NCBI GenBank assembly: GCA_965277675.1
Contig: OZ255839.1
Span: 1,260,543 to 1,324,542, forward strand
Direction: 5' to 3'
Origin: Candidatus Azotimanducaceae bacterium
Lineage (GTDB): Bacteria; Pseudomonadota; Gammaproteobacteria; Pseudomonadales; Azotimanducaceae
Length of the DNA stretch: 64,000 nt
Position numbers and translations under genes: made by a program. Of this stretch, positions 3,115 to 49,148 are shown one piece after another. The notes under the pieces were generated by a model, which saw only the letters and a program-made list of their open reading frames with translations, was not told the origin of the DNA and made no database searches. Position 1 is the first letter of the stretch. The number at the start of each line of letters is the position of its first letter.

Positions 3115-4368
3115 ATGCATCAGATATTCACCAATGCCAAATTGTTTACTGCCACCACCCATGAGGCAATTTCAAACGCCGCTATCTGGGTGGATGGGAA
3201 CAAAATTCTCTACGCCGGCCCTGCAGACGGGCTGCCGGAAACACCACGAGATACGGTGCAGCAAGACCTGTCAGGTAAGTTCGTCATGCCGGGTATGACC
3301 GAAACCCATGCCCACCTGTCGTTCGCCGACGCCAGCCCGTTTGCCATTGGTGAAACGGGGGTTGAAGACGCGACCCTGACGGCAGTCCGAAATGCCCGCT
3401 TGATGGTTGCATCCGGATTTACGTCGGCGGTGAGTTTTGGGTCCACCTACAAAATCGATGTCGCTCTCAGAGGCGCCATAAACTCAAAAAGAATCATTGG
3501 CCCCCGTTTACTGGCTGCCGGACGTGATCTCGGCGCGACCGCAAGCAACGTTGACTCCGGCGGTGGCCTGAGTCAGATCGCAGACGGCCCCTGGGCGCTC
3601 CGAAAAGCCGTCAGAGAACAGCGCAAGCTGGGCGTCGATGTTGTCAAAATCTTTATCGATGGTGAGGCGATCAACCCACAGAACCCGCCTGGCGAACTCA
3701 GCTTTACCGACGAAGAAGTCAACGCCATCGTTGACGAAGCCCACCGTCGTAAACTCCGCGTTGCCTGCCATGCGAGATCTGCTGCTGCGGTTAAGCAGGC
3801 GGTAAGGGCTGGTGTGGACTATGTCGGTCACGCCAACTATCTCGACGATGAAGCCATTGATTTACTGGCAGAACGCAAAGACCGAATCTTTGTGGGTCCC
3901 GCCATCGCCTGGGAAGTGACCTACCTTGAGAAATGCGAGTCTATTGGTGTCTCCCGGGAGACCGTTATCCAACAGGGGTATCAGGCTGAAATTGACGCCA
4001 CCATAGCAACGGTTGAAAAACTCAAAGCCGCTGACATCAAGATGATAGTTGGCGGAGACTACGGTATTTCTATCGCGCCCCACGGCACCTATGCCAAGGA
4101 TCTCGAGTATTTCGTCAATCTCTTTGGAATGAGCAACGCCGAATCGCTGATCTGCGCAACCCGCAATGGCGGACTCGCTTTCGATCCGGCAGGTACTGTC
4201 GGTACTCTGGCACCAGACACTCTTGCTGACCTGGTTATCGTCGATGGCGATCCGCTGGAGGACATCACCGTACTGCAGGATCACGCTAAACTCAGCGTGA
4301 TGAAAGATGGCGTGTTGTACAAAGACCTCGGCAATTCAAACCCCTACCTCGCGACACCTGGAGAATAG
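3115..4368 (+). CDS. Amidohydrolase family metallo-hydrolase (imidazolonepropionase / Xaa-Pro dipeptidase-like)
   Basis: Track ORF 3082..4368 starts at TTG. ATG at 3115 has GGAG 8 nt upstream. PGMTETHAHLSF (HxH), VKIFIDGE and ACHARS are motifs typical of the amidohydrolase_1 superfamily. Confidence 0.8.
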   Translation: MHQIFTNAKLFTATTHEAISNAAIWVDGNKILYAGPADGLPETPRDTVQQDLSGKFVMPGMTETHAHLSFADASPFAIGETGVEDATLTAVRNARLMVASGFTSAVSFGSTYKIDVALRGAINSKRIIGPRLLAAGRDLGATASNVDSGGGLSQIADGPWALRKAVREQRKLGVDVVKIFIDGEAINPQNPPGELSFTDEEVNAIVDEAHRRKLRVACHARSAAAVKQAVRAGVDYVGHANYLDDEAIDLLAERKDRIFVGPAIAWEVTYLEKCESIGVSRETVIQQGYQAEIDATIATVEKLKAADIKMIVGGDYGISIAPHGTYAKDLEYFVNLFGMSNAESLICATRNGGLAFDPAGTVGTLAPDTLADLVIVDGDPLEDITVLQDHAKLSVMKDGVLYKDLGNSNPYLATPGE

Positions 4369-4373
4369 TAGCA

Positions 4374-5615
4374 ATGCAAATGGATATGCCAGGTACCGGT
4401 ACCGATTGGCAGGCACTGAAAAAAGAAATGCTTGCCAGAGGCGGCGATGACGCAAAATGGCGCGAAGGTAAAACGGCTGTTTATGTCTTTAATGCCGGCG
4501 AGGATGTTGCCCAGGTTCAGAAAGAAGCTTACACCATGTATATGTCAGAAAACGGCCTCGGCCCCCTGGCATTCCCCAGTCTGAAACAAATGGAAGACGA
4601 GGTGGTTGGCATGGGGTTATCCCTGTTGCACGGCCCCGCCGATGCCGCCGGGAATATCACGTCCGGCGGAACCGACTCCATTAATATGGCGGTTAAGGCA
4701 GCCAGAGACTACGCAATCGCAACCAGGGGCATCTCTGACGGCACACCGAACATTGTCGCCCCCTATTCAGTGCATCCCGCGTTCGATAAAGCGGTAAAAA
4801 TGATGCGCCTGGAACTGCGCCGGGTACCGGTTGCATCCGACCTGCTGGCAGATGTCGCCGCGATGGAAGCTGCAATGGATGACAACACGATCATGCTGGT
4901 TGGCTCTGCACCCAGCTTTCCTTATGGGCTGATTGATCCCATCGCCGCCATCGGCGAGCTTGCCGAGCGCAAACAGTGCTGGCTGCACGTGGATGCCTGC
5001 GTCGGCGGCTATATTGCCCCTTTTGTCAGAATGAATGGTGGCGACGTGCCAGCATTCGATTTCGAGGTTGCTGGCGTGCATTCCATGTCGGCTGATCTGC
5101 ATAAGTATGGTTACTGCGCCAAAGGCGCCTCAACCGTATTGTTCCGCTCTGAGGAATTACGCAACTACATGATCTTCGACTGTGACGACTGGCCCGGGGG
5201 ACGCATGATGACCCCCACCCTGGCTGGCACCAGACCTGGCGGCGCCATCTCTGCGGCCTGGGCAGTAATGAACTTCCTGGGAATCGACGGCTATCGCCGG
5301 AAACATAGGCTGGTCACGGATGCGCGGCAAGCGATTGAACAGGGTGTCACTGAGTTGGGGTTCGATGTTCTCGGTAAACCCCAACTCGGCATCGTCGCCT
5401 TCAGTCATCCGAATCTGGATGTGTTCGCGATCTACAAGCAACTCTATATGAAAGGCTGGTTTACCAGCCTGACGACCGCACCCAAAGCACTCCATCTGAT
5501 GCTGTCACCCTTCCACGCCGAGGTAACGGACACCTATTTAGCAGATCTGAAGGCTGCCATGGAAATTGTCGCTGCTGGCGGCAGTGAAACCATCACCGAG
5601 GCGCGCTACAGCTGA
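4374..5615 (+). CDS. PLP-dependent group II decarboxylase-fold enzyme, sphingosine-1-phosphate-lyase-like
   Basis: SGGTDSINMAVKAARD, HVDACVGG and SADLHKYGYCAKGASTVLFRS, where the HK lysine is the PLP Schiff-base site. The pattern matches soluble bacterial SPL homologs as I recall them. No N-terminal TM. Confidence 0.7.
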   Translation: MQMDMPGTGTDWQALKKEMLARGGDDAKWREGKTAVYVFNAGEDVAQVQKEAYTMYMSENGLGPLAFPSLKQMEDEVVGMGLSLLHGPADAAGNITSGGTDSINMAVKAARDYAIATRGISDGTPNIVAPYSVHPAFDKAVKMMRLELRRVPVASDLLADVAAMEAAMDDNTIMLVGSAPSFPYGLIDPIAAIGELAERKQCWLHVDACVGGYIAPFVRMNGGDVPAFDFEVAGVHSMSADLHKYGYCAKGASTVLFRSEELRNYMIFDCDDWPGGRMMTPTLAGTRPGGAISAAWAVMNFLGIDGYRRKHRLVTDARQAIEQGVTELGFDVLGKPQLGIVAFSHPNLDVFAIYKQLYMKGWFTSLTTAPKALHLMLSPFHAEVTDTYLADLKAAMEIVAAGGSETITEARYS

Positions 5616-46090: not shown

Positions 46091-46660
46091 ATGTGTCGCC
46101 TGACATCTTTATTGATACTCGCCGCGATGGCCTTTGGGACACAGGCTGATACTGTGACCTACCGTGTGTTTGGCAGTTTCATGAAAGCCGACAACGCCCA
46201 TGGATTTGCAGAGCAATTGCAGCAGGAAGGTGTTGAGGCCGCTGTGCGCTTCAGTGAACCCCATGGCGTGTTTCGGGTTATTGCCAATGCCCATGGCATC
46301 CCGGAAACAGCACTGGCAGCGCACGAAAGCTGGCTGCTATCGTTGTCAGAAACACGGCCATCGACAATAACGCCCGCCATCACCGAAATAGCGCCGACAT
46401 CAATCGATCCTGCAACAATCATCATCGAAGCGCCACCATCAGCCCCGCTGTTTCCAGCACTTGAGCCCGAAGAGTCTCTCAGCGCCTATTGCCAGCGGCT
46501 GCCTGCCTCAGAACTTTGCCAACACCCGAGAATCCAGCATGCGCTGGAGACGGACAAAAAGCTCGCACCAACCCGGGAGCTACTGCAGGGCGTCTGTGAA
46601 CGAATCACTCACCCGCAGTGGCACCAGACCTGTCTTGAGCTACATGCCGATGCCGGATAG
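46091..46660 (+). CDS. Secreted protein with N-terminal SPOR-like domain
   Basis: Signal peptide MCRLTSLLILAAMAFGTQA, then YRVFGSFMKADNAHGFAEQLQQEGVEAAVRF...GVFRVIA, which fits the SPOR beta-alpha-beta pattern. Confidence 0.5.
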   Translation: MCRLTSLLILAAMAFGTQADTVTYRVFGSFMKADNAHGFAEQLQQEGVEAAVRFSEPHGVFRVIANAHGIPETALAAHESWLLSLSETRPSTITPAITEIAPTSIDPATIIIEAPPSAPLFPALEPEESLSAYCQRLPASELCQHPRIQHALETDKKLAPTRELLQGVCERITHPQWHQTCLELHADAG

Positions 46661-46711
46661 CGCGGTTTAAACGCGCCTGACATAGAATTTAAAGTAAAGG
46701 CGCCGTTAAGC

Positions 46712-46747
46712 TTGACGAATCTACGGCAGCCCCCTAGAATTCGCGCC
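46712..46747 (+). promoter_or_regulatory. Sigma-70 stable-RNA promoter for tRNA-Glu
   Basis: TTGACG (46712-46717), a 17-nt spacer, TAGAAT (46735-46740), then the GC-rich discriminator tcgcgcc. tRNA 5' end at 46759. Confidence 0.6.
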
Positions 46748-46758
46748 TTCATTGCAGT

Positions 46759-46834
<76 letters not shown>

Positions 46835-46936
46835 CAATGATTCACAAAACCACTAAAGACGGCGTAAACTCTGTTTTTAGCGTGACAAGCGATATCAATC
46901 TGTCCAACGAGATCGCAAGCACTGTCAGACGCGTCT

Positions 46937-47185
<249 letters not shown>

Positions 47186-47204
47186 ATAGATGACGTCAGT
47201 TATC

Positions 47205-47280
47205 GCGGGTATAGCTCAGTTGGTAGAGCGCGACCTTGCCAAGGTCGAGGCCACCGGTTCGAACCCGGTTACCCGCTCCA
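47205..47280 (+). tRNA. tRNA-Gly (anticodon GCC), CCA encoded
   Basis: gcgggtatagctcagttggtagagcgcgaccttgccaaggtcgaggccaccggttcgaacccggttacccgctcca. Acceptor gcgggta/tacccgc and anticodon loop ttGCCaa. Confidence 0.95.
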
Positions 47281-47284
47281 ACTC

Positions 47285-47318
47285 AATCGAGACTCAATCT
47301 ACGTTCGATTTTTGAGTC
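47285..47318 (+). terminator. Weak stem-loop plus T-run after tRNA-Gly
   Basis: aatcga...tcgatt followed by ttttt; alternative pairing gactcaa...ttgagtc. Confidence 0.35.
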
Positions 47319-47414
47319 AGCACGCTTTCAACCGGTTACAAAACTCCGCAAGCTTCCAGGTCAACCGAAGTGCATTTGCAGCACTGTGAGCTGGATTTCG
47401 ATGATAAGTGCCTC

Positions 47415-47723
47415 CTAGTCTGAATCTCCGTAGCACTTAAGCGGCAGAAACCTGACGATGATTTGATCGAAAAACGCAGCGTAGATAACCAGAAGCACTG
47501 TGCACCCGTAGCCGATAACGTCGAAATCAGCGCCAAACGCGAGCGTTAAAGACAGGGCCAACAACAGCGGAATGCCAATCCACCAGACAATGTCTATTTC
47601 GATCAAACGGTGACAATAGCTACAACGCGAGCCTTTACCAAGTTCAGCAATCTGAACCTTTCCATGTTCACATAACGGACAGCGTCTTTGTTTTTGTCTT
47701 TGTTTTTGTTTTTGTTCAAGCAT
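47415..47723 (-). CDS. Zinc-ribbon two-TM membrane protein, candidate immunity protein
   Basis: MLEQKQKQRQKQRR, then CPLCEH...CSYCH, then two hydrophobic helices. Lies 42 nt downstream of the double-glycine peptide gene on the same strand. Confidence 0.5.
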   Translation of the reverse strand: MLEQKQKQRQKQRRCPLCEHGKVQIAELGKGSRCSYCHRLIEIDIVWWIGIPLLLALSLTLAFGADFDVIGYGCTVLLVIYAAFFDQIIVRFLPLKCYGDSD

Positions 47724-47735
47724 GGCTAAAACGAC

Positions 47736-47752
47736 CGGGCCTTACGGGCCCG
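47736..47752 (-). terminator. GC stem-loop between the peptide gene and the downstream membrane-protein gene (possible attenuator)
   Basis: cgggcc-ttacg-ggcccg. On the minus strand it is followed by gtcgTTTT, 4 nt after the stem. Confidence 0.4.
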
Positions 47753-47765
47753 ATCATAAAACAAT

Positions 47766-47957
47766 TTAGTTACTTTTGAAGGACGCGGCAGCAGAATAAA
47801 CCCCATAGGCAGACATTGAGCGCGTAAACAGATACCCACCAACGCTTCTTACGCCGGCATGGCCCGCGAACGAACCAATAGCAGCCAAAACTGGCAATAT
47901 TCCACCGCTTGCGGCATGCATTTCATCTTCAGATAATTCCCTGATTGTTGTTTGCAT
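47766..47957 (-). CDS. Double-glycine-leader peptide precursor (class II microcin/bacteriocin-like)
   Basis: MQTTIRELSEDEMHAASGG | ILPVLAAIGSFAGHAGVRSVGGYLFTRSMSAYGVYSAAASFKSN. The leader fits LSxxELxxIxGG, with hydrophobics at -4, -7, -12 and -15, E at -8 and S at -11. AGGAG sits 6 nt before the ATG. The 44-aa core is Gly/Ala/Ser-rich and has no cysteine. Confidence 0.65.
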   Translation of the reverse strand: MQTTIRELSEDEMHAASGGILPVLAAIGSFAGHAGVRSVGGYLFTRSMSAYGVYSAAASFKSN

Positions 47958-48166
47958 AACTGTCTCCTTAGTTTTTAGTTGACCGATTGACTAACCGGTA
48001 ATCGATTAGATACCTCGATGCAACGGCTCAGAAAGCGTTAGTGTCTCTATTGACCGAAGGATAAGCAGGCAACGTCACGTGAGATCTCACTGGCATGGGC
48101 CCAAGGAGCCATCAATTTCGGTCGGAAAACTTCGAGCATCGTATGGCGCTTATGGAAATCGCCCTT

Positions 48167-48460
48167 TTACGATGTTTTTTGCTTTTTCACCCAGCCAACA
48201 TGATGTGCCACTCGCGGATCGCCTTTCAGCTGTTCCAGTGAATGGTAGTGCTTTGCCAGTGACATCTCGTCATGGAGTTTATGAACGCCGCGATGGCATA
48301 GCCGACAGAGATAAACACCACGATTAAGCGCTTCTCTGGCGTAGTGTTTCCTGAAGTGCACACGGCGATGTACCTTGCGTGGAATTAAATGGTGGAACTG
48401 CAGGGGCACACGACGTTCGCAAAGTGCACAAGCTGCATCGGCTGGCGGTTTAGCCGGCAT
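48167..48460 (-). CDS. Small HNH-nuclease-family protein
   Basis: ATG at 48460 sits 1 nt after the upstream stop (TGAAATG). CALCERR...FHHLIPRKVH...CRLCHRGVH gives the CxxC / HH / CxxCH zinc-finger HNH layout. 97 aa. Confidence 0.7.
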   Translation of the reverse strand: MPAKPPADAACALCERRVPLQFHHLIPRKVHRRVHFRKHYAREALNRGVYLCRLCHRGVHKLHDEMSLAKHYHSLEQLKGDPRVAHHVGWVKKQKTS

Positions 48461-48461
48461 T

Positions 48462-49148
48462 TCAGGCTGCCAGGCGGTCCGCAATAATCCTGAAAACGTC
48501 GGCTGAATAGCCAAGACCAATATGGCTGGCAGTGACTTCCACGTGGTCAACCCCGTCGGAAACTTCGTCAATGCAGGCTTCCCAGGCGACGACACCGTCT
48601 CGTTTGGAATAGATCGCGGTCACAGGGACTTTTAGCGGCGTGGCGTAACGTGCATCCACCTCCCGCTCGATCTCATCCAGATCCATGCCCCTGGCCCGAA
48701 AAACCTCAGCCACGCGAGTGTATTTGGGGCCACCCACGACCGGGCTTCCCATGGTAATCACAGAATTCACAAATTCAGGCAGTTCGCGGGCTACCTCGCG
48801 GGCGATATAGCCCCCCAGGCTCCAGCCAATAAGATCCACCTTGGCGGCCACGGTGGCTGATTCGCGCATCGTCAGGCTCTTCATTTCTTCCAGTAAAGCC
48901 ATGACCTCGCCATCATTGGCCCCACGATTCCAACCGCGAACGTTATAGCCGAGCGACCCAAGATACTGTCGAAGCGGTAACGTCGAAAGATCACCTGCGC
49001 CAAAACCCGGCATCACAATCACAGTTCTGCCATCGCCCCTGGCGCCTCGCATTAACAAGGGCGCAGACAACAACAGCCTGGGGAACTCTGCCCAGCTGAA
49101 CAGCTCGGCAACCACCTTCTCATTTGACGGAATCCGGTAATTTCGCAT
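48462..49148 (-). CDS. Alpha/beta hydrolase (lipase/esterase-like)
   Basis: VIVMPGFG and the nucleophile elbow DLIGWSLGGYIA. Confidence 0.8.
   Translation of the reverse strand: MRNYRIPSNEKVVAELFSWAEFPRLLLSAPLLMRGARGDGRTVIVMPGFGAGDLSTLPLRQYLGSLGYNVRGWNRGANDGEVMALLEEMKSLTMRESATVAAKVDLIGWSLGGYIAREVARELPEFVNSVITMGSPVVGGPKYTRVAEVFRARGMDLDEIEREVDARYATPLKVPVTAIYSKRDGVVAWEACIDEVSDGVDHVEVTASHIGLGYSADVFRIIADRLAA

Follow-up and report, generated by a model that had tools for sequence, protein, structure and literature searches.

The peptide gene and its neighbour

The region of interest is a pair of small, adjacent genes on the minus strand of a 64,000-nucleotide stretch of contig OZ255839.1 (hereafter, the window), from a Candidatus Azotimanducaceae bacterium. 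The upstream gene encodes a 63-residue peptide with a double-glycine leader and the downstream gene a 102-residue, putative zinc-ribbon membrane protein (the partner); the two are separated by a predicted stem-loop. An earlier note on this DNA, written from the sequence alone, had described the peptide open reading frame (ORF) and its Shine-Dalgarno (SD) sequence, a GC-rich hairpin, a 102-aa ORF with a CxxC...CxxC motif and two helices, and a tRNA-Gly gene 135 nt away. Each of these was located as described. The features of the two-gene cassette, with the evidence on which each rests, are as follows:

47969-47964, minus strand: SD sequence AAGGAG, 6 nt 5' of the peptide ATG (sequence read directly)
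47957-47766, minus strand: peptide ORF, 63 aa, MQTTIRELSEDEMHAASGG followed by ILPVLAAIGSFAGHAGVRSVGGYLFTRSMSAYGVYSAAASFKSN, the core starting ILPV... (sequence read directly)
47901-47957, minus strand: double-glycine leader, residues 1-19, MQTTIRELSEDEMHAASGG (homolog conservation, signal pattern and family models)
47766-47900, minus strand: predicted mature core, 44 aa plus stop, ILPVLAAIGSFAGHAGVRSVGGYLFTRSMSAYGVYSAAASFKSN (computed properties and homolog alignment)
47731-47757, centred on 47733-47755, minus strand: GC-rich stem-loop with stem GAUCGGGCC / GGCCCGGUC and loop CGUAA, then UUUUAG (folding energy and related loci)
47415-47723, minus strand: partner ORF, 102 aa, CPLC...CSYC, putative immunity protein (always 3' of the peptide in intact loci)
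47613-47681, minus strand: zinc-ribbon knuckles of the partner, C15-P-L-C18 ... C34-S-Y-C37 (conservation and a weak TFIIB profile match)
47448-47591, minus strand: two transmembrane (TM) helices of the partner, about residues 45-66 and 70-92, joined by the short acidic loop GADFDV (hydropathy and AlphaFold2)

Nine homologs of the peptide, at 63-75% identity, were found in a collection of 5.8 billion clusters. The glycine pair, E12, L8 and much of the core are invariant, with many core positions unchanged among ten homologs. In most related loci, strong SD-like motifs (AGGAG, GGAGA, AAGGAG) lie 5-8 nt 5' of the peptide start. When the window is compared with other loci, synonymous differences are saturated in both genes (pS 0.69-0.87) while non-synonymous differences are low (pN 0.23-0.37); judged by this pattern, both ORFs are protein-coding genes under purifying selection. 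The possibility that the peptide is a chance ORF was considered, and rejected on the grounds of homolog conservation and pN << pS.

The predicted core is cationic (pI about 10), hydrophobic (grand average of hydropathy 0.64), cysteine-free, and about 4.45 kDa in size. An AlphaFold2 model of the peptide is of low confidence (predicted local distance difference test, pLDDT, 59) and places two helices in the core, at residues 20-37 and 46-62. A hydropathy scan of the prepeptide contains no 19-residue window above 1.6. Searches of the peptide against PDB sequence profiles returned nothing meaningful, and Pfam holds no match to it.

The leader is of the double-glycine type

The leader ends in G18-G19, preceded by hydrophobic residues at positions -4, -7, -12 and -15 (A-4, M-7, L-12, I-15) and an acidic residue at -8 (E-8). 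The same arrangement is seen in 18 related peptides: the glycine pair (18/18) and E-8 are invariant, L-12 is found in at least 90%, and the consensus at the remaining positions is V-4, M/I/L-7 and I/M-15. We also applied the published microcin signal pattern, R-x-[IL]-x9-G-[GAS] (PMC12219008). The window holds 592 ATG-started sub-ORFs of 40-150 aa, and the peptide (R6-E-L8-x9-G18-G19) is the only one that fits, which argues against a chance match.

Two curated NCBIfam models were compared with the family: TIGR03949 (class IIb bacteriocin, lactobin A/cerein 7B family; cut-off 21.5 bits) and TIGR01847 (the generic double-glycine bacteriocin signal; cut-off 15.7 bits). TIGR03949 matches 15 of 18 family peptides. 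Ten homologs were scanned individually, and seven of them exceed its cut-off, at 21.6-33.6 bits (P0002, 29.4; P0004, 33.6; P0005, 23.5; P0006, 21.6; P0009, 24.5; L009, 32.4; L014, 29.2); P0003 (21.3 bits) and P0007 (19.7 bits) fall below it, and P0010 gives no match. The TIGR01847 cut-off is exceeded by two of the ten (P0009, 16.5 bits; the second peptide of locus L009, 16.7 bits), with P0002 (15.1 bits) and P0004 (14.2 bits) just under. The TIGR03949 match reaches only the leader and the first 10-25 core residues. The leader is also modular: the motif MRE[LF]-x3-E[LI]-x2-VSGG is carried by unrelated cores in two related loci (L009, 4694-4855; L014, 3083-2898).

By these sequence criteria the leader is a genuine double-glycine leader, in agreement with the earlier note, whose proposal is borne out by the invariant glycine pair, the retained hydrophobic positions, and the homologs that pass TIGR03949 or TIGR01847. 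The peptide family borders on TIGR03949, with homologs inside it and the window peptide just outside. The same note had called the peptide an orphan. It is a real, conserved, class II-type double-glycine peptide; given its place at the edge of TIGR03949, with several homologs above the cut-off, it is less of an orphan in sequence space than that label suggested.

The partner belongs to an undescribed zinc-ribbon family

The partner begins 42 nt 3' of the peptide stop, its ATG at 47723 lying eight nt past the hairpin. Its N-terminus is basic (10 K/R in residues 1-44), and its C-terminus, LPLKCYGDSD, is an instance of a conserved tail, LPLK-x-YGDSD. AlphaFold2 models the protein (pLDDT 78) as a small beta ribbon followed by two long helices, at residues 35-64 and 68-92 (pLDDT 84-94). 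Applying the positive-inside rule to the distribution of charge, we predict that both termini, and hence the zinc ribbon, are cytoplasmic, leaving about six residues outside.

Conservation in the family is concentrated in (i) the zinc ribbon, which is the most conserved part of the protein, (ii) an [IV]E pair just before the first helix, and (iii) the PLK tail. Across 22 diverse members, R13, C15, P16, C18 and C34 are invariant and C37 nearly so; E42 and P94 are also invariant or near-invariant.

A single-sequence homology search with the partner found no homolog. A profile built from the ORFs 3' of the peptide homologs found 17 proteins, and a full HMMER scan of 1.84 billion representatives returned 71 proteins at E <= 0.001 and 35 at E <= 1e-10, nearly all of them 90-110 aa long. 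There is no such family in Pfam or NCBIfam; a Foldseek search of the PDB returned nothing at E <= 0.001, and among PDB sequence profiles the TFIIB zinc ribbon was the sole, marginal match (E = 0.23). The partner is thus a member of a small, undescribed protein family. The exact 102-aa sequence is absent from a collection of 15 billion proteins, and the profile search gave no 100% match to it, whereas the peptide (P0001) is present; the source genome therefore probably lacks an annotation for the partner gene.

A 12-nt tandem repeat (2.8 copies of GTCTTTGTTTTT on the plus strand; 47684-47716) encodes the partner's N-terminal KQKQRQKQR. This segment is absent from the related partners aligned, and looks like a lineage-specific expansion.

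A conserved stem-loop separates the two genes

The stem-loop between the genes forms 9-11 pairs, with a folding energy of -19.8 kcal/mol (z = -2.9 against 200 shuffles). A stem-loop directly after the peptide stop is present in eight of eleven cassettes (the window, L001, L007, L008, L011, L013, the first cassette of L014, and L015), with z scores of -2.3 to -4.7 in the related loci; L005, L009 and the second L014 cassette lack one. It is kept as a structure rather than as a sequence: the stems at this position have at least five unrelated sequences, and the stem differences within the L001/L007/L013/L014 group are compensatory or wobble-compatible.

The earlier note had read this element as a hairpin with a trailing U-run that could set a high ratio of peptide to partner. 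The stable stem-loop, kept in most cassettes, stands; the canonical terminator does not. Taking an intrinsic terminator to be a GC-rich stem-loop followed by at least five U in 8 nt, a consensus scan does not call the window hairpin, which has just four U after the stem. In the related loci the U-run is weak or absent, and no U-tract is conserved. In most loci the partner start has no apparent SD; it sits just 3' of the hairpin and is followed by A-rich Lys/Gln codons. The hairpin is probably a leaky terminator or an mRNA-stabilising or processing element, and these signals make a high peptide-to-partner output ratio a reasonable expectation.

In L001, L002, L007, L013 and L014 the called partners carry N-terminal extensions of 11-12 residues (MIRSCGLITFHM...; MIRSCGLI...). 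We rejected these as artefacts of in-frame read-through of the hairpin; the true start in each case is probably the inner Met just past it.

The cassette recurs as two genes in several genomic contexts

Intact cassettes, in which a double-glycine peptide gene is followed by a zinc-ribbon partner gene, were found at a minimum of 12 distinct loci: the window, L001, L005, L007, L008, L009, L011, L013, L014, L015, L018 and L019. Further loci go with these (L002, L003, L004 and L006 are near-identical to L001; L010 was grouped with L009, and L012 with L011). Their sources are a K189A-clade metagenome-assembled genome (MAG), a Candidatus Azotimanducaceae MAG (both from the oligotrophic marine gammaproteobacterial group of K189A/HTCC2089 type), and metagenome contigs; the complete 4.13-Mb genome CP121333.1 (L008) also carries the cassette. 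As the earlier note had proposed, a zinc-ribbon, two-TM gene occupies the position of an immunity gene, and it is the constant downstream partner in every intact locus. The genes on either side vary:

L001: bacterioferritin and BFD
L005: sodium:alanine symporter and glucose/sorbosone dehydrogenase
L008: lapAB, and an HU/IHF-type DNA-binding gene with rpsA
L009: a methylamine dehydrogenase gene
L011: HIT and 2TM genes
L015 and L018, common to both: Rieske and glyoxalase genes upstream, SnoaL downstream

The GC content of the cassette region is 46-49%, against 54-58% in the flanks. As far as these sequences tell, the cassette is a small accessory unit, in some cases passed on at the same site and in others moved elsewhere; its low GC content and unrelated contexts are as expected for an accessory, horizontally moving competition module. 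No cassette was found in viral contigs, and neither partner nor peptide was found in plasmids.

Several loci contain more, or less, than one intact pair. In L009, an extra double-glycine peptide (4694-4855; MRELNSTELSRVSGG followed by a core beginning SCILIANHEV...) stands in tandem before the cassette. It has the same leader and an unrelated, proline-rich core with two cysteines and Thr/Ser (SCILIANHEVSLWTCTPQLLNPPPV...), and may be a second bacteriocin or the other half of a two-peptide system.

The L014 contig (Ga0222634_1003110, 1-4515) looks like a small bacteriocin island. It holds three double-glycine peptides (429-620, 3083-2898 and 3494-3688) and three zinc-ribbon paralogs (632-952, 3709-4008 and 4149-4436), the last without a peptide in front; the peptide at 3494-3688 and the partner at 3709-4008 form a divergent pair. 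The peptide at 3083-2898, MREFSEVEIKAVSGG followed by the unrelated core NMLFAGILSIAG..., lies beside a different, 109-aa multi-TM protein (2848-2519). The paralog without a peptide resembles the orphan immunity genes that are common in bacteriocin loci, and several peptide/membrane-protein pairs with an orphan paralog are the standard layout of a bacteriocin-immunity island.

Comparison of the loci reveals that cores of the LLPV...GH..R type are always followed by the zinc-ribbon protein, and that the NMLFAG... core of L014 is beside another membrane protein. In the sequences compared, partner type therefore tracks core type, and not leader type.

A decayed partner relic is present in L016 (10001-10273) and in L017. 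It shows 33% identity, has a stop codon just upstream, has lost the CPxC motif (CPNFEFG), and is accompanied by no peptide gene. Evidently, the cassette can be lost by decay.

A putative toxin-immunity cassette

On balance, we favour reading the pair as a compact cassette for toxin and immunity, of the class II bacteriocin or microcin type (unmodified, with a double-glycine leader). We infer the following course of events. The strong SD would drive efficient translation of the 63-aa prepeptide, whose 19-residue leader would be recognised, and cut after G18-G19, by a peptidase-domain (C39) ATP-binding cassette (ABC) exporter encoded elsewhere in the genome. The released 44-residue peptide—cationic, hydrophobic, cysteine-free and predicted to be helical—would act on the cytoplasmic membrane of related bacteria. 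The 102-aa partner, held in the inner membrane with its zinc ribbon and LPLKxYGDSD tail both in the cytoplasm, would protect the producer by neutralising the peptide, either inside the membrane or where the peptide's membrane target faces the cytoplasm. Between the two genes, the stem-loop and the lack of an SD before the partner would keep peptide output well above partner output.

The partner is probably the immunity factor of the peptide. Immunity is the best reading of the partner because partner type follows core type rather than leader type. It is further supported by the island-like layout of L014 and by the fit to the usual description of microcin immunity genes, which are picked and validated as adjacent, small and inner-membrane (PMC12219008). 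The peptide itself comes as no surprise, since double-glycine microcin-like peptides have already been reported to be widespread well beyond the Enterobacteriaceae (PMC12219008). It is a fairly ordinary kind of gene; what is new is the zinc-ribbon partner and the strict two-gene, exporter-less organisation.

Several observations weigh against this reading, and the main one concerns export. Characterised class II microcins as a rule have their exporter genes alongside, and this cassette does not. No ORF with both a Walker A motif and an ABC signature was found in the window and 17 related loci (about 210 kb, partly redundant). In addition, no HlyD-type membrane fusion protein was found among the ten mid-sized window ORFs scanned, and the called genes of the related loci include no Pfam match to ABC or HlyD families. 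The earlier note's report of no exporter in the 64 kb holds, and the cassette is exporter-less wherever examined. The remaining observations concern the two proteins. When the leader is scanned with family models, as the earlier note had suggested, the family passes while the window peptide itself is marginal and sub-threshold: it scores 17.4 bits against TIGR03949 (E = 0.0027; below the cut-off of 21.5), and has no match to TIGR01847 even at E <= 10. At 63-75% identity among homologs, the core is unusually conserved for a toxin expected to be under diversifying selection. Finally, no description of a zinc-ribbon bacteriocin immunity protein was found in the literature, and only about six partner residues are predicted to be exposed to the periplasm.

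The lack of a nearby exporter is the main weakness of the bacteriocin reading, and is the basis of the alternatives. The peptide could act without leaving the cell, entering the producer's own inner membrane with its glycine pair unprocessed by any ABC exporter while the partner neutralises or regulates it in cis; the pair would then be a self-contained toxin/antidote or small-membrane-protein complex, serving as an addiction or stress module. This accords with the absence of an exporter near any cassette found, with the movement of exactly two genes into unrelated contexts, and with the decayed L016 partner that has no peptide. The predicted cytoplasmic location of both partner ends would suit an intracellular interaction, and the hairpin and weak partner translation start would allow tight control of the ratio. 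However, the N-terminal 15-19 residues behave as a transferable double-glycine leader, found on unrelated cores and matched by curated bacteriocin-leader models; this would be difficult to account for if processing did not depend on the leader. As long as the leader is intact, pre-microcins typically show no toxicity in the cytoplasm (PMC12219008), and given the hydropathy profile of the prepeptide, spontaneous insertion as a classical TM toxin is not obvious. We regard a non-exported module as unlikely. A broader proposal, which is doubtful in our view, makes the family defined by R-x-CPxC...CxxC, two TM helices and a [FYL]-PLK-x-Y tail a novel type of immunity or handling protein for bacteriocins, acting cytoplasmically via its metal-binding domain. 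The pair would then be an exporter-independent module, whose peptide is either released or activated without a linked peptidase-containing ABC transporter (PCAT), or acts inside the cell as a membrane toxin that the partner restrains.

Two other explanations were considered. In one, the peptide would be secreted in a non-killing role, as a signal or pheromone or as a self-assembling matrix or biofilm factor, and the partner would be its sensor, receptor or handling factor. The strongly conserved core resembles a ligand more than an arms-race toxin, the zinc ribbon—the most conserved region of the partner—could bind a cytoplasmic protein or nucleic acid, and there are weak leader-level matches to the peptide pheromone model NF033772 (E = 0.01-0.08). 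Those matches are confined to the leader region, however, and score far under the cut-off (13-14 bits against 85). For a pheromone, a hydrophobic, cationic core of 44 residues would also be long. The cassette has no linked histidine kinase or response regulator (such genes were seen only in L001, about 7-9 kb downstream, and in L005, at a distance of about 6 kb), and the L014 pairs with their orphan partner paralog have the layout of a bacteriocin-immunity island. In favour of this explanation, a biofilm role has been reported for microcins in Acinetobacter (PMC13188072). We think a non-killing role improbable. In the other explanation, the peptide would be the precursor of a ribosomally synthesised and post-translationally modified peptide (RiPP), with its modification enzymes encoded elsewhere and the partner taking part in maturation. 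Weak leader-level matches to NF038153, TIGR03893, NF033456 and TIGR04149 (E = 0.001-0.09) point this way, as do the two cysteines and Thr/Ser of the first L009 peptide. Yet the window core has no cysteine, no modification enzyme stands beside any cassette, the partner has no enzyme-like fold, and all of the RiPP matches are sub-cut-off and confined to the double-glycine leader; we consider a RiPP precursor very unlikely.

Comparison with known systems

Under the toxin-immunity reading, the closest known systems are the class II microcins, such as microcin V (cvaC, with immunity gene cvi and export by CvaAB/TolC). The likenesses are (i) an unmodified peptide of <10 kDa with a 15-19-residue double-glycine signal (R-x-[IL]-x9-G-G), (ii) an adjacent small inner-membrane protein, and (iii) a Gram-negative host. 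Set against the features used to recognise class II microcin clusters (PMC12219008), the window has the signal pattern and the adjacent small membrane protein, and lacks a linked PCAT and membrane fusion protein; the same two exporter genes are missing beside the cassette in every locus found. The window core differs from class II microcins in having no cysteines and no Ser-rich C-terminus for siderophore attachment, and has no sequence similarity to any annotated microcin. The partner differs in its predicted cytoplasmic zinc ribbon, and the hosts are oligotrophic marine gammaproteobacteria rather than Enterobacterales.

With the TIGR03949 bacteriocins, mostly from Firmicutes, the family shares the leader and a core start rich in small residues, to the extent that seven homologs score above the cut-off while the window peptide does not. 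Class IIb bacteriocins have two complementary peptide genes side by side. The window has a single peptide gene, as do most loci; two tandem peptides are found only in L009.

The streptococcal blp-type loci are multi-cassette, and a single ABC exporter is shared by their peptide/immunity pairs and orphan immunity genes. L014 resembles them in its repeated pairs of a double-glycine peptide and a small membrane protein, in its extra partner paralog without a peptide, and in the export in trans that it would require. The cassette differs in its Gram-negative hosts, its unrelated partner family, and in that no linked exporter or quorum-sensing genes were seen.

In peptide-antibiotic operons, intercistronic hairpins behind the structural gene (nisA, for example, or mccA of microcin C) raise the level of precursor transcript over that of the downstream genes. 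The element described here is likewise a stable, structurally conserved stem-loop, placed between the peptide stop, which it follows directly, and the partner gene; it differs in that its U-tract is short or absent, so that it is no canonical intrinsic terminator.

The window neighbourhood

Outside the cassette, an Rfam scan of 46500-48700 found only two tRNA genes:

47205-47280, plus strand: tRNA-Gly(GCC), 135 nt from the partner stop
46759-46834: tRNA-Glu (Rfam)

The earlier note had taken the tRNA-Gly to mark an insertion hotspot. We rejected tRNA-targeted integration as a feature of the family: no tRNA lies beside the cassette in the 14 related loci scanned, making the adjacency unique to the window, and the window cassette has no flanking att-like direct repeats and no integrase signal.

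A near-perfect (GATA)64 microsatellite (46937-47191; 99% matches; GC 32%) takes up most of the sequence between the two tRNA genes. For a bacterial chromosome this is a very long tract; it could be hypervariable, or an artefact of assembly.

Directly upstream of the cassette lies a 142-aa ORF (48167-48595, minus strand) with a weak HNH nuclease-like match (NCBIfam HlpB, 44 bits against a cut-off of 130; Pfam HNH, E = 0.086). Because, as listed, it overlaps a 228-aa alpha/beta-hydrolase ORF (48462-49148) by 134 nt, translation probably starts further downstream. In the other loci this ORF does not lie beside the cassette.

Implications

Oligotrophic marine gammaproteobacteria are usually thought of as streamlined and non-combative. 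If the two genes are indeed a toxin-immunity cassette, competition of the class II bacteriocin or microcin type would extend to these bacteria (K189A/HTCC2089, Azotimanducaceae, and relatives). The partner would represent a new and rare putative immunity family, whose most conserved feature is a cytoplasmic zinc ribbon. This would raise the question of how a protein with only about six residues in the periplasm, and with its metal-binding domain in the cytoplasm, could protect against a membrane peptide delivered from outside. With its strictly two-gene, exporter-less layout, the cassette offers a compact test case for export in trans.

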